The notes beneath the pieces are model-generated. The model was not told the DNA's origin and made no database searches. It worked only from the letters and a program-made list of their open reading frames with translations. Of a DNA stretch of 64,000 bases, positions 52,149 through 62,447 are shown in pieces. The DNA is from Clostridiales bacterium (lineage in GTDB: Bacteria > Bacillota > Clostridia > Christensenellales > UBA1242). The stretch spans positions 216,049-280,048 of the forward strand of contig SVHV01000002.1 of the NCBI GenBank assembly GCA_015055605.1, written 5' to 3'. Within the stretch, counting starts at the first letter, position 1. The number at the start of each line of letters is the position of its first letter. The translations under genes and the position numbers were made by a program.

Positions 52149-52200
52149 ATAGTGTCTCCTTTAGTGAAAATTTTTATTGTACTTATTATAAGGTATTGTA

Positions 52201-52217
52201 TGTACCAAAATTTGTAC
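52201..52217. promoter_or_regulatory. Island palindrome copy a: TGTACCAAAATTTGTAC
   Basis: Read directly; between the phosphatase stop and the FtsH-like start. Confidence 0.6.
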
Positions 52218-52224
52218 TTCGTGT

Positions 52225-52905: not shown

Positions 52906-52949
52906 GTTATTCTCCTTATTTTGAATCGGCTTTATTGTATATTAATCAA

Positions 52950-52967
52950 TGTACAAAATTTGGTACA
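52950..52967. promoter_or_regulatory. Island palindrome copy b: TGTACAAAATTTGGTACA in the divergent control region
   Basis: Read directly; lies in the 106-bp gap between divergent genes 52905(-) and 53012(+). Confidence 0.65.
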
Positions 52968-53011
52968 ATGGTTTATTTATAATATGAATAATATGTTTTC
53001 TAGGAGGAAGT

Positions 53012-54059: not shown

Positions 54060-54075
54060 AAATGTATTGTAACAA

Positions 54076-54093
54076 TGTACCAAATATTGGACA
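54076..54093. promoter_or_regulatory. Island palindrome copy c: TGTACCAAATATTGGACA upstream of the DUF2779 gene
   Basis: Read directly; 38 nt upstream of an extended -10 TGTTATAAT (54131-54139). Confidence 0.6.
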
Positions 54094-54130
54094 TAGTACA
54101 ATAAAATTGCTTTCTTGATGGTGGGAATTG

Positions 54131-54139: not shown

Positions 54140-54162
54140 GGTTGTATGTAAGAGAGGTGCGT

Positions 54163-55659
54163 ATGCATTTTAGCAAATCGAAATATTGTGGGTTTTATCA
54201 GTGTCCAAAGATTACATGGCTAAAGAAAAACAAGCCAGAAGAGTTTGTTCCTGACGAGGCGGCACTAGGTCGTATGGCTAGTGGTAATGAACTAGGCGAC
54301 CTTGCTATGGGGATTTTTGGAGATTTTGTAGAAACAACAACCTATACTGATGATAAATTAGATATTCCTCAGATGATAGAAAAAACTAAAGAGTATATGG
54401 CTAAAGGTGAGGCTGTTATATGTGAGGCGTCTTTTGAATATGATGGCTTGTATTGTGCAGTAGATATACTTAAGAAAGAGCCTGGTGGTTATAGTATTTA
54501 TGAGGTAAAGAGTTCTACTCATGAGCATAATTTTGCATACATTGTAGATGTTTCGTACCAGAAATATGTGCTAGAAAAGTGTGGAGTAAATATTGTGTCG
54601 GTCAATCTAGTGACAGTTAATAACGATTATGTCTTTGATGGCACACTTAAACTAAATGAGCTTTTCAAAATCACTAATGTAGATCAACAAGTTGCTGACG
54701 AAATTGATAAAGTAGAGCCTAATCTAATTGATGCAGAAAAGATACTTGAGAGAGAAGACGAACCTAATATGGATATAAGTGTTAAGTGTCATACTCCTTA
54801 TGTTTGTGGTTTCTGGAAATACTGTACAAAGCATATTCCAGAGGTGTCAGTATTTAATCTATATAGAACAGACTTTCAGAAGAAATTGAACTATTATTAT
54901 AATGGCATTATTACTATGGAAGATTTGGCTAATTGTGGCGAGTATTTGGGTGATAAACAAAATATGCAGATACTACACGCTACCAGTGATTTGCCTGACC
55001 ATATTGATGCAGAGGGTATAAAAAAGTTCTTAGGTAAACTATCTTATCCTCTATACTTTTTAGACTTTGAAACCATGCAATTACCAATACCTCAGTTTGT
55101 TGGAACTAAACCATATCAGCAGATACCTTTTCAATATTCTCTGCATTATATAGAGTCTATGGGTGGAGAACTTAAGCATAAAGAGTTCCTTGCTGAATCG
55201 GGCGAAGACCCTAGAAGGGCAATTGCTGAGAGTCTATGTAGAGATATTCCTCAGAATGTATGTGTTCTAGCATATAATAAAGGCTTTGAGAGTGGTAGAC
55301 TTAGTGAACTGGCTGAGACTTTTCCAGACCTAAAGGATCATTTATTGAATATTGCTATTAATATGAAAGACCTAATTGACCCTTTTAGAGATGGTTATGT
55401 GTACAATAGGAGAATGGGAGGTTCGTTCTCAATTAAGAGTGTGTTACCTGCGTTATTTCCTAATGCACCAGAATTGGACTATCACAACCTTGATGGTGTA
55501 CATAATGGAGGAGAGGCTATGAGTATCTTCCCTAAAATCAAAGATATGTCACCAGAGGATAGAGAGAGGGCTAGGAATAGCCTGCTTAAATACTGCGAAC
55601 TAGATACTTTTGCAATGGTGAAAATATTTGAGTATCTTGTAAATGCAGTAAAGGAGTAA
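54163..55659 (+). CDS. DUF2779-type protein: Cas4-like PD-(D/E)XK nuclease with 4Fe-4S cysteines plus C-terminal DEDD/RNase-H-like module
   Basis: N-terminus FSKSKYCGFYQCPKITWL, VDIL..YEVKSS nuclease core, C-x7-C-x5-C (CHTPYVCGFWKYC), FLDFET exonuclease-like motif; start moved to ATG 54163. Confidence 0.7.
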   Translation: MHFSKSKYCGFYQCPKITWLKKNKPEEFVPDEAALGRMASGNELGDLAMGIFGDFVETTTYTDDKLDIPQMIEKTKEYMAKGEAVICEASFEYDGLYCAVDILKKEPGGYSIYEVKSSTHEHNFAYIVDVSYQKYVLEKCGVNIVSVNLVTVNNDYVFDGTLKLNELFKITNVDQQVADEIDKVEPNLIDAEKILEREDEPNMDISVKCHTPYVCGFWKYCTKHIPEVSVFNLYRTDFQKKLNYYYNGIITMEDLANCGEYLGDKQNMQILHATSDLPDHIDAEGIKKFLGKLSYPLYFLDFETMQLPIPQFVGTKPYQQIPFQYSLHYIESMGGELKHKEFLAESGEDPRRAIAESLCRDIPQNVCVLAYNKGFESGRLSELAETFPDLKDHLLNIAINMKDLIDPFRDGYVYNRRMGGSFSIKSVLPALFPNAPELDYHNLDGVHNGGEAMSIFPKIKDMSPEDRERARNSLLKYCELDTFAMVKIFEYLVNAVKE

Positions 55660-55663
55660 ATTT

Positions 55664-56659
55664 ATGCCATTAGACAGTAATAAGAAGTTATATATAATGT
55701 ATATCTTAAAGGTATTAAGAGAAGAAAGTGACGAAAAGCATCCTCTTAGACAATTAGATATAATTAACAAAGTTAAGTCTAGATATAATGTTGATAATAT
55801 CGACAGAAAGACCATTGCTAGAACAATAGATAGCTTAATAGACATGGGTGTCGATATTGTTAAATTAGAAGGTGGAGGCTGTTACCTTGCAGATAGGGAA
55901 CTTGAGCCTAGCGAGATTACTTTTTTAATTGATGCTATATTCTCTAGTCGTGCTTTGAATTGTAAACAAGCCAAAGATTTGTCTGACAAACTCTCTAAAT
56001 TGCTTAGTGTACATCAAAGAAACAGATTTAAGTATGTGCATAAGTCAGATGAGGTTGTGAGGACCGACAATAAACAACTGTTTCTAAATATTGATATGAT
56101 AAGCGAGGCTATAGAAAAGGGTAAACAAATCTCTTTTAATTACACTAGACATTATTTTGATAAAAATAAAAATGCCGAGCAAGAAGAAAAAGAGTATATA
56201 ATCAATCCATACTTTATGGTTAATAATCAAGGAAAGTATTACCTTGTGTGTAATTATGATTATTATAATGATGTGGCTAATTATAAAATTGAGCAAATCA
56301 GAAATGTGAAAATATTAGACACAGATATTAAGCCTATTACCAAACTGAAAGATTGTGAAAATGGTTTAGATAAGGCTAAATTTATCAATGAAAATATTTA
56401 TATGTTTAACAATCAGACTGTATCGGCAGTGATTAAAGTTGGTGACGAGTATGCGGTTAATTATATTGTAGACTGGTTTGGCAAGGACGCTAGACTTTAT
56501 AGTAAAGATGGCGACATACTAGCATCTGTGAGAGTCAATGAACAAGCACTAATATACTGGTGTCTACAATATGGCGAAAGTGTTGAACTTGTATCTCCGG
56601 AGACAACTAGAGAAAAAATTAAAGATATTGTGAAGATATTATATAAAAAATACCAGTAA
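55664..56659 (+). CDS. wHTH-WYL-WCX transcriptional regulator (BrxR/CapW-like architecture)
   Basis: N-terminal winged HTH (YILKVLREESDEKHPLRQLDIINKV), WYL core GKYYLVCNY...NYKIEQIRNVKIL, C-terminal extension; starts 4 nt after the DUF2779 stop. Confidence 0.75.
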   Translation: MPLDSNKKLYIMYILKVLREESDEKHPLRQLDIINKVKSRYNVDNIDRKTIARTIDSLIDMGVDIVKLEGGGCYLADRELEPSEITFLIDAIFSSRALNCKQAKDLSDKLSKLLSVHQRNRFKYVHKSDEVVRTDNKQLFLNIDMISEAIEKGKQISFNYTRHYFDKNKNAEQEEKEYIINPYFMVNNQGKYYLVCNYDYYNDVANYKIEQIRNVKILDTDIKPITKLKDCENGLDKAKFINENIYMFNNQTVSAVIKVGDEYAVNYIVDWFGKDARLYSKDGDILASVRVNEQALIYWCLQYGESVELVSPETTREKIKDIVKILYKKYQ

Positions 56660-56668
56660 GTAAAACGG

Positions 56669-56686
56669 TGTACTAAATTTGGTACA
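56669..56686. promoter_or_regulatory. Island palindrome copy d: TGTACTAAATTTGGTACA (may double as the WYL terminator hairpin)
   Basis: Read directly; followed by TGTTTTTG. Confidence 0.55.
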
Positions 56687-56837
56687 CTGTTTTTGTTATG
56701 ATTAGATTATAGATGGTTCTTGTGGACGATAAATAGAGTGATTTTAATATATTGTTTAGTGGGTTTGATAGTATGTAATTTTGTTTATATACTTACATTA
56801 AAAATTAGATGTACTATATCAAACCAAAGGGGGTTAT

Positions 56838-57341
56838 ATGAAATTTGAGGTTAGGCTATGTAGCGTGCTAGATAGTGGTACAGATATAATAGTTAATGCA
56901 GCTAATAATTATTTGTCTAGAGGCGGCGGTGTTTGTGGTGCGATTTTTGAGAGGGCAGGAGCAGAACTGCTCGAGGCTGAATGTAGAGTGTGGGGGTATG
57001 TTAAAACTGGCTCAGTTGCTACTACTAATGGATTTCAATCTGGTGCTAAATATATTATTCATGCTGTTGGTCCAAACTTTTATATAGACCATCAGGATTG
57101 GCAAGAGAAACTAGAGAGTGTGTATAAAAAATCGCTACTCGTGGCTGACGACTTGGGTGTAAATAGTATTGCTTTTCCTTGTATATCTACTGGAATATTT
57201 GGCTGTCCTATAGAAGAGTCTGCTAAGATTGCTGTGAGGGTTGTTAGAGAGTTTCAGCCCAAAAACCTAAAGAATTGTGTACTTTGTTGTTTTACAGACG
57301 GAGAATATTCTGTCTATAATGCATTACTGTATAGCAAGTAA
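56838..57341 (+). CDS. Stand-alone macro domain protein (MacroD/YmdB-like ADP-ribose hydrolase)
   Basis: IVNAANNYLSRGGGVCGAIFERAG, IIHAVGP, IAFPCISTGIFG motifs. Confidence 0.85.
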   Translation: MKFEVRLCSVLDSGTDIIVNAANNYLSRGGGVCGAIFERAGAELLEAECRVWGYVKTGSVATTNGFQSGAKYIIHAVGPNFYIDHQDWQEKLESVYKKSLLVADDLGVNSIAFPCISTGIFGCPIEESAKIAVRVVREFQPKNLKNCVLCCFTDGEYSVYNALLYSK

Positions 57342-57356: not shown

Positions 57357-57393
57357 AAGTGGGTGTTTGTGATAAGCTGCACCCACTTTTTTT
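57357..57393 (+). terminator. Intrinsic terminator after the macro gene
   Basis: AAGTGGGTG...CACCCACTT plus T7. Confidence 0.75.
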
Positions 57394-57470: not shown

Positions 57471-57498
57471 TTGACAAATGAAAAAATTATGATATAAT
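57471..57498 (+). promoter_or_regulatory. Near-consensus promoter TTGACA-16-TGaTATAAT
   Basis: TTGACA 57471-57476, TG 57490-57491, TATAAT 57493-57498. Confidence 0.7.
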
Positions 57499-57528
57499 GG
57501 GGGCAAGATTATTATGGGGGTTGGGGTT

Positions 57529-58725
57529 ATGAAAAAGGATTCCATAAGTAGTCTTGGCGAGCATTATAGAGGGCTAGTTGGTGATATAGCCTACAATGAT
57601 AAAAATGCTACAATTAAGACAATTGTAAAAGATTATTCTTCTAAGTTTGGCACATTACAAGCCTGCTTTATGAGTGATAATCACTTGGGCTCTTCTGATA
57701 CAGATATCGAGGGCTTAATGGAGACTCTTAGATATGCAAATTCTCAAGAGAATGCTGTTATCTTTATTCTAGGAGATGCTCTTAATACTGCGATTGTTGG
57801 CAGTAAATCTGATGCTTATGAGGACATACTTTCTCCTCAAGAGCAGTTAGATGTTTTTTCTGAGGTCTTGAAACTTGCTAAAGGCAATAAAGAAGTTGCT
57901 AGAGTATTACAAGACCTAAACGATACTGGCAAAATAGTAGTCTTGCATAGTGGAAATCACGAGGACAGAATCAGAAAAGCTGTGGGTATTTCTACTACAA
58001 AACTTGCTGCAGATATTGCCGGTGTTGGAGATGTTTTCGCTCCATATTACGCTAGTACTGATTTAGTGCTTAGACAACCACTTGCTCCAGATGGTAAGTT
58101 CCATTTTGGCGTGGTTTCTCATCACGGCACAGGTATTTCTAATATAGACGGAACATTTAGACTACTTAGAACTGTAGACAATGCTAATATGTGTGTAATA
58201 GGTCACACTCATCAGCAATCTATGAAATACGAAAGAATGATTAAAGTTGACCCAGATGGTAAGCAGAGATACCATGATGTTTTGTGTCTAACACTACCTT
58301 CTAGTGGTGGTGGTACTTATGGCGCAGGTATGTCACTTCCTGATACTGCTAAACAGACAGCAGTTTGGGTTGCTATTAGTTCACAACCAAACCCTTATGC
58401 TGGTAGGATTTCTCCTACTGGTATTGAGTATCCAGATATTATCCCTGCCTGTGCGTTCTTTACTCCTACTAATACTATGGATACAAAGATTAAACAAAAA
58501 AGACACAATGCTGCAAAGAGAGTTATTGAGCAGGGTTGTGAAGAACAATTAGACTCAGTTAATGCAAAAATCAATGAAGCAGTAGATGCTATCACAGAAT
58601 TTGAGCAGTACCTCCGTAATAAAGTGCAAGGTGCTATCGTAGAGAAACCTAGAAAAAAACCTAGTGGCTATGATGCTTATGTACAAGCACTTGAAGAAAA
58701 TCAAGGTGAAAAGGGAGGAATGTAA
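57529..58725 (+). CDS. Calcineurin-like metallophosphoesterase with complete active-site motifs and coiled-coil tail
   Basis: SDNH, LGDALN, SGNHED, SHHG, GHTHQ in canonical order; ATG 57529 behind the G-rich RBS preferred over ATG 57514. Confidence 0.75.
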   Translation: MKKDSISSLGEHYRGLVGDIAYNDKNATIKTIVKDYSSKFGTLQACFMSDNHLGSSDTDIEGLMETLRYANSQENAVIFILGDALNTAIVGSKSDAYEDILSPQEQLDVFSEVLKLAKGNKEVARVLQDLNDTGKIVVLHSGNHEDRIRKAVGISTTKLAADIAGVGDVFAPYYASTDLVLRQPLAPDGKFHFGVVSHHGTGISNIDGTFRLLRTVDNANMCVIGHTHQQSMKYERMIKVDPDGKQRYHDVLCLTLPSSGGGTYGAGMSLPDTAKQTAVWVAISSQPNPYAGRISPTGIEYPDIIPACAFFTPTNTMDTKIKQKRHNAAKRVIEQGCEEQLDSVNAKINEAVDAITEFEQYLRNKVQGAIVEKPRKKPSGYDAYVQALEENQGEKGGM

Positions 58726-58727
58726 TT

Positions 58728-60074
58728 ATGTCAGATATTGTTACTAAGATTGCTCATGGTGAAGTTGATGACAAAATTGATGTAGATTACATCAGAAGAA
58801 GTGGCGACTATATCAGAGAAAGGATTTTGGACGCAACTGAAGTTGACTTGTCTAGGACTGCTCCTAATGTATTTAATTATGTTATGCCTAGAAATAGTTT
58901 AGGCTTAAACGAGATTAGTAATGTAGATATGGGCTATGCTGGTACTAGTGTAGACTTTGCTGGCGAGCATTTGTCTAAGAGAAATCCATATCTAAAAGAG
59001 TTAGAGTATAATGTATCCCTTATGAGAGATAGCGAAAATGCTATTGTCATTCTTAATGGTGGATTATTTAGTTATGTGCCAAAGACTCAACATGGCAGAT
59101 TGCTTTCTTATCAAGAACAGATTGCTTACTTCTATTCTTTATTTAAAGATTTGGCTGATCAGGGAAAGATTGTTGCTATGGTTAGAGGAACAGAAGAGCA
59201 TAGAATTCTTAAAAACCATCAGATAGATGTTTTATCTGTATTACAAGAGGCTCTAGGCCTTCAACAAAAGGTATGTAATGATGCCCTTGTGAATGTTGCT
59301 ATTGAGGACGATATGGTTGGTAGAGCAAATGTTGGTATTAGAACTATTAACTGGAATAATACTGCAACAACAGGTGCTTATATCGGTCGTAAGATGGAAG
59401 AGAGAGCAACCAAAAGAGGTGGTGCAGATATTTATATTGCTAGAACAACTATGAATTACTTTAAGACTGCTGTAATAGGTGAGAGTGATGGTACTCATAT
59501 CAGAAAGAAACCTATCTATCTATTATCTGGTGGCTCATATACTCCATTCAAGGGTGCGATGACTGCTGGTGCAGAGTATAATTCTATTAAAGATGGCGAA
59601 CTACCTCCTAATAGTTTCTGGTACAAGGTTACTATTGAAGAAAAAGCTCCAGAGATTGATGGGGATAGACCTTATATTGTTAGAGTTAATCCTATTCAGT
59701 ACACTGCTCACCAGATTACACTTCAAGGTACTGATGAATTAGTTGCTGGAATTGAGAACGAAATCGAGGCTAAGACTGACGGTTTGGTTCAGGGCTTTGT
59801 AGATAGATTTTCTACTGCAATATCTACTCCTAGAGAAGAGGGTAGAAAGAGAATTAGAGAAATCTTGATTAATAATAAAAAGGTGGCGGCACAAAATACA
59901 GATATTGCTAAGTATGTTGCTGCTAAGAAAGGAAAGGGTGCTTATGTTGAGTCCCCAGCTAGAATAGAGGACCTAGGTAGTAATGTGCCAGTTAAGAAAC
60001 CTATAACTATCATTGACGGTGTTACAAATCTTGAAGAAGTAACCCCTGCTCCCGAAGAAGACCTACTTCCTTAG
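58728..60074 (+). CDS. Degenerate (probably inactive) paralog of the upstream metallophosphoesterase
   Basis: Blockwise similarity ENAIVILNGGLFS / ENAVIFILGDALN, LLSYQEQI / ILSPQEQL, GKIVAMVRGTEEHRI / GKIVVLHSGNHEDRI, IARTT / IGHTH; metal ligands substituted; ATG 2 nt after the upstream stop. Confidence 0.65.
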   Translation: MSDIVTKIAHGEVDDKIDVDYIRRSGDYIRERILDATEVDLSRTAPNVFNYVMPRNSLGLNEISNVDMGYAGTSVDFAGEHLSKRNPYLKELEYNVSLMRDSENAIVILNGGLFSYVPKTQHGRLLSYQEQIAYFYSLFKDLADQGKIVAMVRGTEEHRILKNHQIDVLSVLQEALGLQQKVCNDALVNVAIEDDMVGRANVGIRTINWNNTATTGAYIGRKMEERATKRGGADIYIARTTMNYFKTAVIGESDGTHIRKKPIYLLSGGSYTPFKGAMTAGAEYNSIKDGELPPNSFWYKVTIEEKAPEIDGDRPYIVRVNPIQYTAHQITLQGTDELVAGIENEIEAKTDGLVQGFVDRFSTAISTPREEGRKRIREILINNKKVAAQNTDIAKYVAAKKGKGAYVESPARIEDLGSNVPVKKPITIIDGVTNLEEVTPAPEEDLLP

Positions 60075-60086
60075 TTGAATAATAAA

Positions 60087-60116
60087 AGAGTAGACGAGAT
60101 GTCTGCTCTTTTTTTT
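60087..60116 (+). terminator. Intrinsic terminator
   Basis: AGAGTAGAC-5nt-GTCTGCTCT plus T8. Confidence 0.75.
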
Positions 60117-60142: not shown

Positions 60143-60220
60143 ACAAAAGTACACGAAAATATTGTTTGGTTTATTGTGGTTGAGTGGTTTTAGTGTACAA
60201 AAAGCAATACAAAAGTACAC
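60143..60220. repeat. GTAC-cored repeats: ACAAAAGTACAC x2 (60143, 60209) and inverted GTGTAC/GTACAC (60193/60215)
   Basis: Read directly, immediately upstream of TTGACA at 60229. Confidence 0.6.
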
Positions 60221-60282
60221 AAATGCTATTGACATTAGTGTGTTATTGTGTTAGTATAAGTTTGATAACGGAGGTAATTATA

Positions 60283-61335
60283 ATGTCAAGAATAAAAACA
60301 CAAGAAGAGGTTGCTAAGTTTATAAAAGAAAAAATGAATGATAAGGGAATTAAAAAATCTATTGACCTTGCTAGAGCTGTTTCAATATGTAAGTATGGTC
60401 ATGAGATGGGGAGTAGACCAGATAATATTGATGCTATCAAGTATAGTGTGAGCAAGTGGCTACAATGGGAGAACAAAGATAAATCTAGATTTCCTGGCAC
60501 TGAGTATATATTTTATCTATCACAAGTTTTAGGGGTTACGATGGAAGAATTATTGATGGCAGGAGATGTTTGCTCAAAGTATGACAATAGACCATTTTCG
60601 TTATATGCAATAGCAAAGAGTAATAGTCCGGAGTTGCTAGAATCTGTAAGAGATAATGATAGCATAGACGGAAATTCTATTCTATCTAATTATGATGAGT
60701 TTGATAAAACACTACTGCATTATATTTTAGAGTTTGATAGTAGAGAATTGTTGCAATATATGATAGACAATGGCTATGTAAGATTTGAAAATACAGGTTT
60801 TACAATATATGTGACAATGTGGGGAATGTATTTTAATACAGAGTTATATTCAAAAATTGTGAAGATGGCTATCAAGTATGATGATATTAATATTTTTAGA
60901 AGTGCGATTAATAGAGTGTTGCCCTTGTATAAAGATATGTTAGATGAAGAGGATATGCTTAAGATTTTAGATACTACTGAAATATTTAAGTATCTCACTA
61001 CTCCTTATGTTGCTACTGCTGAGGAGTGGAGAATGGTTAATCCTGGTATTACATATATAGATAATGAATCTACTGAAGCATTAAAAGGGGTGCAGGTTTT
61101 ACCTATCTTATTTAATAACTTGTTGGCAGTTGCAAAAGATAGTCAAAATGATAAACTAGACTTACTTAGGGATATTGCGAAGAAACACAATAAAACTACA
61201 ATGGACTTGATAAATAGATTTTACTCTAGAAAAGAATTTGAAATACTTGAAGACGGACGACTTACTTCGGGTAGGTATGGTTGGCTTACAGTTTTAGGTA
61301 TGGAAGATGGGAAAGTTGTAGGAGAGGGTGCTTGA
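60283..61335 (+). CDS. XRE-like HTH protein with helical-repeat (possibly ankyrin-like) C-domain
   Basis: ATG 60283 behind RBS GGAGG; HTH stretch IDLARAVSI...KYSVSKWLQWEN; KTLLHYILEFDSRELLQYMIDNGY resembles an ANK repeat (weak). Confidence 0.55.
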   Translation: MSRIKTQEEVAKFIKEKMNDKGIKKSIDLARAVSICKYGHEMGSRPDNIDAIKYSVSKWLQWENKDKSRFPGTEYIFYLSQVLGVTMEELLMAGDVCSKYDNRPFSLYAIAKSNSPELLESVRDNDSIDGNSILSNYDEFDKTLLHYILEFDSRELLQYMIDNGYVRFENTGFTIYVTMWGMYFNTELYSKIVKMAIKYDDINIFRSAINRVLPLYKDMLDEEDMLKILDTTEIFKYLTTPYVATAEEWRMVNPGITYIDNESTEALKGVQVLPILFNNLLAVAKDSQNDKLDLLRDIAKKHNKTTMDLINRFYSRKEFEILEDGRLTSGRYGWLTVLGMEDGKVVGEGA

Positions 61336-62447
61336 TGAGATATTTGTTTTTTGATGCTGAATCTATACACAATAGGCATAAATATTCATATACTTTTGGT
61401 TATGTGGCAACTGATGATAAGTTTAAGCTTATTGCCCCTCGAGAAGATATAGTTTTTAATCCTGATATTCCCAAAGAAGAATATGACTGGCGTGTAATCA
61501 GAACAATGATGGAGCCTAGTTATAGCCTAAAAGAAGTGATTAAGAAACCTAAATTCACTACTTACTATAAGAAAATTAGTAAAATAATATCTGTTCCTGA
61601 TACTCTATGTATAGGCTGGCAGATGGACGGAGATGTGAAGTATCTTTTGAATAATTGTCATAGATATAATCTACCTGCAATAAACTTGCGATATATAGAT
61701 GTTAGAGATATTCTTCAGATTTTAACAAAGGAACAAGTGGGGTCTCTTTCGCATGAGTATACGAAATGGTGTCATAAATTACCAGAGTTGTCTCACACTA
61801 GCGATATTGATGCAGATATGACCAAAGATGTTCTAAATGCAGTGTTTAAGAAATATAAAATAAACCTAAAAGATTTCTTGGCAGAGCATAGCGAAATTAT
61901 GGGCGAAGCTAAAGACTTTGTTTATGGTTATACAAAAAAAGAAGATGTTAGAATTGAAAATGCAAAAACAGACATTATGATTAATGGTCGTAGATTTAAG
62001 CGTTCTGTGGGAGAAAAGGGCGATGATATGTCATCTAAGTCACTTAATAAACTGTTGTTTACAAGGTATTTAGACTATGTAACAATTAATAAAGATGCAG
62101 AACACTATTTAGCAGGAAAGTCGGTTAGTATAAGCTTGAATTATGAAAGGTATCATTTTCAAAATATGGTCAAACTGGTAAAAGTTCTTAGTGAGGTTGG
62201 CGCAGAGTACAGGCTAAAGGCTACTGAGTCTGATATTCTGGTAACTTATGATGATATATTAGATGCAGAAGGAGGAATAAGGTCTTGTTCTAAACTTAAA
62301 CATGTTAAAGAATTGGGCGAAGATTGTAATATGGAAATTATGAGTTTTGATGATTTTCTTGCACTGCTAAATTTAGATAGAGAATCTTTAGATGATTTAC
62401 CTAAGATTGATGTAGAATTTTTATCAGATGAAAAATATGCTCGTTAG
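61335..62447 (+). CDS. DEDDh (DnaQ-like) 3-prime-5-prime exonuclease with C-terminal BRCT-like domain
   Basis: Exo I FFDAES, Exo II GWQMDGDVKYL, Exo III HTSDIDADMT; C-terminal LAGKSVSISLNYER...VGAEYRL...DILV BRCT-like pattern; ATG overlaps the upstream TGA (TGATG). Confidence 0.6.
   Translation: MRYLFFDAESIHNRHKYSYTFGYVATDDKFKLIAPREDIVFNPDIPKEEYDWRVIRTMMEPSYSLKEVIKKPKFTTYYKKISKIISVPDTLCIGWQMDGDVKYLLNNCHRYNLPAINLRYIDVRDILQILTKEQVGSLSHEYTKWCHKLPELSHTSDIDADMTKDVLNAVFKKYKINLKDFLAEHSEIMGEAKDFVYGYTKKEDVRIENAKTDIMINGRRFKRSVGEKGDDMSSKSLNKLLFTRYLDYVTINKDAEHYLAGKSVSISLNYERYHFQNMVKLVKVLSEVGAEYRLKATESDILVTYDDILDAEGGIRSCSKLKHVKELGEDCNMEIMSFDDFLALLNLDRESLDDLPKIDVEFLSDEKYAR

Follow-up and report, generated by a model that had tools for sequence, protein, structure and literature searches.

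Why would a bacterial chromosome keep, directly behind the gene for an apparently intact metallophosphoesterase (MPE), a second gene for a full-length copy of the same fold whose metal ligands are gone? The question is posed by two adjoining open reading frames (ORFs) in a 64,000-nt stretch of DNA (the window) from the Clostridiales bacterium assembly GCA_015055605.1 (contig SVHV01000002.1, positions 216,049 to 280,048). The window is a piece of low-GC (∼35%) bacterial chromosome that also carries RecD2, SecA, AspRS, GatA/GatB and several ABC transporters. The two proteins of the pair are termed MPE-A (57514–58725, plus strand; a 403-aa ORF, which all MPE-A residue numbers follow) and MPE-B (58728–60074, plus strand; a 448-aa ORF), and both are deposited at NCBI as 'hypothetical protein' (MBE5738957.1 and MBE5738958.1). 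A first-pass annotation had already proposed that they form an enzyme/pseudoenzyme complex. MPE-A and MPE-B are confirmed here as a real active/dead paralog pair. With moderate confidence, we explain the locus as a vertically inherited operon for a two-subunit phosphodiesterase in which an enzyme would be joined by a 'prozyme'-like pseudoenzyme, rather than as a gene of phage or a defence cassette that moves between genomes.

Is the first protein an intact enzyme? MPE-A carries DxH (D55, H57), GD (G87, D88), GNHE (147–150), HH (203, 204) and GHTH (230–233) motifs, and these five motifs together with a predicted β-α-β-α-β sandwich place it among the calcineurin-like MPEs. All seven di-metal ligands are kept. 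In an alignment of 36 family members the motif residues are invariant throughout (D55, H57, D88, N148, H149, H203/H204, H231 and H233), which bears out the earlier claim that the first protein has every calcineurin-like motif. Judging from the intact motifs and from what is known of the superfamily, MPE-A would hydrolyse phosphodiester or pyrophosphate bonds at a binuclear metal site, making it the candidate catalytic subunit.

Family profiles place MPE-A less precisely. Pfam PF00149 (Metallophos) aligns end-to-end at a sub-threshold 18.5 bits (gathering score 21.5), NCBIfam LpxH reaches 17 bits where its cutoff is 134, and an hmmsearch of all PDB sequences with an MPE-A profile gave no match at E≤1. 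The PHROG 7339 profile matches at E=1e-23 (positions 28–210 of 263); on MPE-B it matches only weakly (7e-4). The AlphaFold model of MPE-A suggests an N-terminal helix, the MPE core, a beta-rich cap, a long helix (325–375), a short helix and an acidic tail. Foldseek returned 56 PDB matches to this model at E≤1e-3, of which all 50 listed are MPEs, and 47 matches in BFVD at the same threshold, nearly all MPE-type. The top PDB E-values belong to LpxH and SapH (1e-6 to 3e-5), with TM-scores of 0.26–0.32 on the query. Mre11, SbcD and PolD DP1 are matched as well, DP1 with the lowest root-mean-square deviation (5.7–5.9 Å). The closest structural relatives are phage MPEs (BFVD E=2.9e-18, TM 0.53/0.68, versus 1e-6 for the best solved structure). 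'ApaH type' is merely the generic name of PF00149, and the InterPro label of that name on the BFVD matches was not used as evidence. A match to the integrative model of B. subtilis YydB-YydD (9a6c_B) led no further, as a literature search found no paper mentioning YydB.

Is the second protein truly a dead copy of the first? BLASTP aligns MPE-A and MPE-B at E=7e-5, and an hhalign alignment of the two families reaches E=1.8e-5, spanning 323 columns from end to end with the C-terminal helix included; the similarity noted at first is thus statistically significant. At the ligand positions of MPE-A, MPE-B has N65, D67, G111, T155, W209/N210, R239 and T241, so that 0/7 ligands are kept. The loss of metal ligands had been predicted correctly, although one exact change had not: GD is replaced by NG rather than by GG. 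Most of the substitutes are themselves fixed, with N110, G111, F114 and W209 found in 38/38 homologs and R239 in 36/38, which marks the loss of activity as an old change under selection and not as decay. Mean column identity is 51% in the MPE-B family versus 48% in the MPE-A family, so MPE-B is conserved at least as well.

MPE-B has no Pfam, NCBIfam or PADLOC match, and its profile finds only coiled-coil noise among PDB sequences. Its AlphaFold model is predicted to have the same layout as MPE-A (N-terminal helix, MPE sandwich, beta-rich cap, helix 336–400, acidic tail), and all its significant Foldseek matches in the PDB have the MPE fold (probability ∼1.0), among them YfkN, CD73, CpdB, Mre11, SMPDL3A and calcineurin. 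By sequence and model alike, MPE-B appears to be an MPE fold without catalytic ligands, a pseudoenzyme. Both proteins are predicted to end in a helix of 50–65 residues and then an acidic tail, in keeping with the long helical or charged tails described at the outset, and their C-terminal tips are alike (acidic [DE]-E-[ML]).

Are the two genes kept together elsewhere? Each protein has ∼80–90 homolog clusters at 40–92% identity, all from metagenome-assembled genomes (MAGs) of gut or rumen Clostridia or Christensenellales, and the pair is present in 20 of 185,579 species-representative genomes. At 21 loci the order is MPE-A then MPE-B in every case, and the spacing between them ranges from −1 to +29 nt. 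In the window MPE-B begins 2 nt after the MPE-A stop, as the first-pass annotation had it, and a GGAGG ahead of the MPE-B ATG lies within the 3′ end of MPE-A. Neither gene was seen without the other wherever the contig let adjacency be judged, and in an all-against-all clustering of the genes of 28 loci MPE-A and MPE-B were the only recurring ones. The two proteins also diverge together: their pairwise identities correlate at r=0.955, with means of 55.5% for MPE-A and 56.2% for MPE-B.

How old is this arrangement? An exhaustive hmmsearch of 1.84 billion representative proteins with the MPE-B profile gave only 33 matches, the family itself included. Beyond the family there were about a dozen full-length, MPE-B-like, motif-degenerate proteins and one MPE-A-like active protein. 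A metagenome scan with one of these sister groups recovered 8 loci, and in all 7 that reach upstream the MPE-B-like gene directly follows an MPE-A-like gene. The latter keeps all five motifs and matches the MPE-A-family HMM at 1e-62 to 1e-70; within these loci the HMM of either family, MPE-A or MPE-B, matches the other at 1e-8 to 1e-9. The sister family lives in other low-GC gut bacteria and is only ∼20–30% identical to that of the window. Since it repeats the same active-then-dead order, the architecture is old and is shared by at least two deeply diverged bacterial lineages.

The sister operons add something that the family of the window does not have: a close-coupled gene of 81–87 aa that overlaps the stop of the MPE-B-like gene and encodes a zinc ribbon (CxxC...CPxCG) followed by an acidic helix (L038 9218–9481; L040 2704–2949; L041 7959–8204; L043 1046–1303; L042 9208–9558). 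Its product may be a third subunit in that lineage. The sister loci are chromosomal, with housekeeping neighbours (RuvC, RuvB, RadC, Tgt, QueA, NrdD and DnaX); a 207-aa gene by RuvC and RuvB is presumably RuvA, from its position alone. One sister operon is convergent with an apparent dnaX-ybaB-recR cluster, of which DnaX is assigned by Pfam, ybaB and recR being guesses based on gene size. Rel/SpoT-type proteins of 486–489 aa, with HD_4 and TGS only and no synthetase domain, are also encoded near sister pairs (L038 734–2203; L040 4021–5481).

Strict adjacency and coupling in two families, equal evolutionary rates, long C-terminal helices and the alike acidic tips are the reasons for which we infer a heterocomplex. 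Of the enzyme/pseudoenzyme heterocomplex first proposed, the paralog pair thus stands as observed, and the complex is its most economical reading. Could the genes instead be independent neighbours, with MPE-A a stand-alone phosphodiesterase and MPE-B a neofunctionalised binding or scaffold protein comparable to Vps29, co-transcribed for historical reasons only? Inactive scaffolds with an MPE fold are indeed known, namely Vps29 and the DNA polymerase B subunits, and one of the latter (the Pol alpha B subunit) is among the Foldseek matches of MPE-B. This reading is made very unlikely by adjacency, order and start/stop coupling that persist across such distant families, by the equal rates of the two proteins and by the lack of solitary copies where contigs allowed the check.

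Is the pair mobile? Its surroundings vary widely, with ∼17 different flanking contexts, several of which are common to different species. The closest relative (L030; pair 92/90% identical) has entirely different flanks and no other gene in common with the window, for which reason a mobile cassette or horizontal gene transfer was considered. Both were rejected on grounds of synteny and equal divergence. For example, locus L009 repeats the gene order of the window from GatA to a 364-aa gene (13–27 kb) at 63–90% identity (36% for a single, poorly conserved gene), and there the pair (79/76%) occupies a junction at which the window has no insert (21791/21836). In L011 and L026 the pair lies within a few kb of the AspRS-GatCAB backbone, at other junctions. 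In L026, the most divergent locus, the AspRS/GatCAB backbone genes are 48–64% identical and the pair 37/45%. We read this as vertical inheritance with local reshuffling, under a purifying selection that appears similar to that on housekeeping genes.

Two side observations concern the flanking genes. In a goat-cecum Clostridia MAG, ∼13 tandem paralogous genes stand directly upstream of the pair (L001 1925–9588 and L002 546–9133, minus strand); they encode an expanded family of 160–225 aa with no Pfam match. In one sub-clade a giant ORF is convergent with the pair (L032 12728–21154, minus strand; also L016 and L022). It exceeds 2800 aa by ORF call, comes to 3622 aa by a gene call running past the end of the locus, and has no Pfam match recorded.

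Is the pair then a phage module? A DNA-level search of 50,697 phage genomes with the pair gave no match. MPE-B was found neither in phage genomes by tblastn nor in IMG/VR by profile scan, from which it follows that the pair is no phage module; the sister MPE-B profile likewise found nothing in IMG/VR. The relatives of MPE-A tell a different part of the story. Outside both families, its nearest relatives are stand-alone phage MPEs of 250–300 aa, from Bacillus Slashvirus, Marinitoga viruses and metagenomic phage contigs that also carry portal, tape-measure and ERF genes. This outgroup is phage-borne, single-gene and uncharacterised. MPE-A is a relative or descendant of PHROG 7339 rather than, by its context, a member of it, being chromosomal, ∼140 aa longer and paired. 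Only this distant outgroup of MPE-A being phage-borne, the two genes are not ordinary members of a phage replication module with known function. A plausible history is that a phage MPE was captured, extended at its C-terminus and duplicated in tandem, after which one copy would have been inactivated.

How is the pair expressed? A consensus sigma-A/sigma-70 promoter (TTGACA-16 nt-TATAAT, with TG upstream of the −10 box) lies at 57471–57498 on the plus strand and matches at 12/12 positions. On the same strand, 10 nt past the MPE-B stop, stands an intrinsic terminator-like hairpin with a T-run (60084–60112). The near-consensus promoter and the terminator credited to the pair by the first-pass annotation are thus both in place. 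The true start of MPE-A is probably the ATG at 57529, giving 398 aa, and not 57514, because the −10 box ends at 57498 and leaves no space for a ribosome-binding site ahead of 57514, because GGGGGTTGGGG stands ahead of 57529, and because the NCBI record and most homologs begin at MKKD. The gene upstream of the pair encodes a Macro domain protein (E=4e-35), as had been noted. It ends in a terminator-like hairpin and T-run of its own at 57358–57393 on the plus strand (GTGGGTG...CACCCAC, then TTTTTTT), which was read by eye, its 12-nt loop being above the loop limit of the terminator scan, and which sets the pair apart from the macro gene. Taken together, promoter, MPE-A, MPE-B and terminator probably make up a self-contained two-gene operon with strong, constitutive transcription.

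The promoter is conserved with the pair. TTGACA-16/17-TATAAT stands just upstream of MPE-A with at least 10/12 matches at 18/21 loci, and with 12/12 matches at 7/21, the most divergent locus included. For 390 other genes of the same loci, the corresponding figures were 29.5% at 10/12 and 0.5% at 12/12. Strong, probably constitutive expression of the pair has evidently been selected for.

Do the neighbours reveal a function? The first-pass annotation had suggested a functional tie to the macro gene and, with it, a role in the turnover of NAD-derived or cyclic-nucleotide signals. A macro gene adjoins the pair in the window genome only. As a functional partner the macro domain was rejected, no third gene being conserved over 28 loci, and the entirely different flanks of the closest relative likewise speak against such a tie. 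The broader suggestion survives only as a statistical tendency of the neighbourhood, which is enriched in genes for nucleotide and ADP-ribose hydrolases. Within 4 genes of the pair, over 17 contexts, there are three NUDIX, three Ham1/RdgB and two HIT genes, along with Macro, ADP-ribosylglycohydrolase, MazG and the nicotinamide mononucleotide (NMN) transporter PnuC. A control set of 168 ORFs lying farther out in the same loci, checked by motif, phmmer and top-25 Pfam list only, yielded no NUDIX, Ham1 or HIT gene.

These neighbours bear on whether the pair is an anti-phage defence or counter-signalling module. Such a module would degrade ADP-ribose (ADPR), isomers of cyclic ADPR or cyclic oligonucleotides, with MPE-B as a signal sensor acting alongside neighbours such as the macro protein. 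The enrichment of NUDIX, Ham1 and HIT around the pair fits this proposal, as do KAP NTPase and HopA1 genes near the pair in L004 and the position of PnuC directly upstream of it in L032. So do the variable location of the pair, even among close relatives, and the accessory-looking stretch in which it lies in the window, by DUF2779/Cas4-like, WYL-WCX and Macro genes. The surroundings of the pair in L030 may be added: an AAA_15/AAA_21 ATPase (439 aa) and a 326-aa gene (6641–8975) lie just upstream, NUDIX and ADP-ribosylglycohydrolase genes just downstream, and the whole resembles a small defence or ADP-ribose island. However, PADLOC-DB v2 returned only noise-level scores for MPE-A and MPE-B (E=0.02–0.04), there is no conserved partner gene, and MPE-B is missing from the phage genomes and IMG/VR. 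Housekeeping-like divergence and long-range linkage to AspRS-GatCAB point to vertical descent, the conserved consensus promoter is atypical of defence genes, and the sister contexts are plain housekeeping. A defence role, which had been raised for the pair at first, thus finds little support, and we consider it decidedly unlikely.

How might a two-subunit enzyme of this kind work? In the mechanism we favour, MPE-A would carry the sole di-metal active site of a binuclear MPE made of two subunits. MPE-B would have arisen by duplication of the whole MPE-A gene, lost all ligands long ago and since been held by a purifying selection as strong as that on MPE-A. By analogy with trypanosome 'prozymes' or RNase J2, it would be an obligatory non-catalytic partner. 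Close-coupled translation would supply the two proteins in similar amounts, and assembly could proceed via the MPE domains, the long C-terminal helices or both. The former active site of MPE-B, remodelled but fixed in sequence (N110, G111, F114, W209, R239), would then offer a surface for regulation or for the binding of substrate or ligand. We take the pair to serve a chromosomal function in a Christensenellales-type lineage of gut and rumen that is uncultured, while an older sister version exists in other low-GC gut bacteria.

Several points weigh against this reading. Co-divergence and adjacency would equally be expected from simple co-inheritance. Confidence in the AlphaFold models is moderate, with predicted local distance difference test (pLDDT) values of 79.5 for MPE-A and 71.9 for MPE-B, and the heptad periodicity in the long helices is weak and not decisive for a coiled coil. 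No Rad50/SbcC-like partner adjoins the pair, and the 'DNA repair exonuclease' label of the phage relatives is an annotation by similarity only. The enrichment of neighbours rests on ∼7–8/17 contexts, which are phylogenetically not fully independent. Finally, the evidence on the substrate is contradictory and thin.

What, then, would the substrate be? We lean slightly, and without conviction, towards nucleic-acid ends (DNA or RNA), with nucleotide derivatives (NpnN, ADP-ribose) a close second. The latter are suggested by the NUDIX/Ham1/HIT/Macro/ADP-ribosylglycohydrolase neighbours and by LpxH and SapH as the best PDB E-values. For nucleic acids speak a size and a succession of domains like those of Mre11/SbcD (MPE core, beta-rich cap, helix-loop-helix), the zinc-ribbon gene and RadC/Ruv neighbours of the sister loci, and the replication- or recombination-type context of some phage relatives. 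In its substrate-specific form, the favoured explanation becomes an Mre11/SbcD-type end-processing nuclease in which a homodimer has turned into an asymmetric pseudo-dimer, the C-terminal helices replacing or recruiting a Rad50-like partner. The same size and domain order would suit such a nuclease, as would the Foldseek matches to Mre11, SbcD and PolD DP1, the ERF, primase and HNH genes near members of the phage outgroup, and the sister operons, which bring a zinc-ribbon gene and lie by RadC, RuvCAB (RuvA guessed) or DnaX (ybaB-recR guessed). Against such a nuclease, MPE-A has an Asn (N91) three positions past GD, where Mre11 has a His. The core of MPE-A is also acidic (net −9), and the best PDB E-values are those of nucleotide pyrophosphatases. 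No SMC/Rad50-like ATPase is linked to the pair in any of ∼25 contexts, and so strong a promoter is unusual for a repair nuclease. In its favour again, DNA cleavage by MPEs has been published, for the phage enzyme Gp48, which degrades DNA (PMC12287305), and for a P. putida MPE that is a single-stranded DNA endonuclease (PMC7826289). On balance, an Mre11-type nuclease is a tentative and somewhat doubtful possibility.

A bolder conjecture, which we hold to be unlikely, goes further. The pair, with the zinc ribbon in the sister lineage, would be an unrecognised and abundant complex, a nuclease or phosphodiesterase with a lineage-wide housekeeping role in uncultured low-GC gut bacteria. It would descend from a phage MPE that was domesticated, and the fixed pseudo-site of the dead subunit would bind the substrate or a nucleotide effector and gate the single active site. 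If true, this would be a new asymmetric architecture in the MPE superfamily, possibly one that replaces SbcCD/Mre11-Rad50 or an RNA-end-processing activity in the host genomes.

Because the pair is conserved at a housekeeping level, has a promoter of consensus strength and is represented by two or more deeply diverged versions among uncultured Firmicutes of the human gut and the rumen, it probably serves an important and abundant function that current annotation has missed entirely. We found no description of a bacterial MPE obligatorily paired with a conserved dead paralog, though the MPE fold is among the best-studied hydrolases. The first-pass annotation, too, had known of no system on record that rests on a pair of this kind, and in agreement with it PADLOC, NCBIfam and PDB-sequence searches gave no match and literature searches nothing relevant. 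The pair would offer a compact bacterial model of how pseudoenzymes partner active paralogs, and would exemplify how an enzyme of phage type can be domesticated to become part of a core operon of the chromosome.

Other features of the window lie close by. Downstream of the pair, at 60184–62447, are two genes of 383 and 388 aa whose ORFs overlap by ∼55 nt and have no informative family match; a promoter-like TTGACA-17-TAGTAT at 60229–60257 would serve them. Upstream, at 54142–57341, is a cluster encoding a 505-aa DUF2779 protein that includes a Cas4-like nuclease region, a 331-aa WYL-WCX regulator and the 167-aa Macro-domain protein. It has an accessory or defence-like look and in other genomes is not linked to the MPE pair. 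A palindrome, TGTACnAAAnnTTGGTACA (the 'island palindrome'), recurs between genes at ∼52200–52222, 52948–52970, 54073–54097 and 56669–56691, bordering genes from 52.2 to 56.7 kb, those for the DUF2779/Cas4-like and WYL-WCX proteins among them. The palindrome could act as an operator bound by the WYL regulator, or its copies could form a family of terminators. As first noticed, the control region of the pair is free of it.

How does the pair compare with known systems? Neither the MPE superfamily nor the partnership of an enzyme with a pseudoenzyme is new, and it is their combination for which no description was found; the literature on MPE pseudoenzyme pairs yielded only analogues in other folds. 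The phage MPEs (PHROG 7339, 'DNA repair exonuclease'; for example, Bacillus Slashvirus gp29 and the Marinitoga camini virus MPE) have the same five motifs and 23–31% core identity to MPE-A, but they are ∼250–300 aa long, end without the long C-terminal helix and tail, reside in phages and are not adjoined by a dead paralog. Mre11/SbcD likewise combine a binuclear MPE core with a cap and, at the C-terminus, a helical segment that binds a partner, form dimers and are matched by the predicted structure at a Foldseek probability of 1.0. They differ in being homodimers, where an obligate active/dead heterodimer would be found here, and in having a Rad50/SbcC partner gene; membership by sequence was not supported, with no Pfam or NCBIfam match to SbcD or Mre11 and an empty PDB profile search. 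LpxH, SapH (an Ap4A hydrolase/phosphodiesterase) and Rv0805/CpdA give the best PDB Foldseek E-values for MPE-A and suit a neighbourhood rich in nucleotide pyrophosphatases, but are single-subunit enzymes of 230–320 aa with low TM-scores.

For MPE-B, the nearest parallels in the same fold are Vps29 and the B subunits of DNA polymerases alpha, delta and epsilon, in which the MPE ligands were lost and the fold was reused for protein binding. These proteins (and the active archaeal PolD DP1) are eukaryotic or archaeal, have no active paralog beside them and show no sequence similarity to MPE-B. The nearest parallels to the partnership itself come from other folds and organisms. In B. subtilis, RNase J1 and J2 pair an active enzyme with a conserved dead or weak paralog on which function depends. 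In T. brucei, AdoMetDC/prozyme and PRMT1 ENZ/PRO combine an active enzyme with a conserved dead or weak paralog that is needed for function (PMC5201418; 10.1101/776112). Complex formation and activation in the MPE pair would follow these precedents by analogy, and the feature that the pair shares with them outright is a conserved dead paralog co-inherited with its active enzyme.

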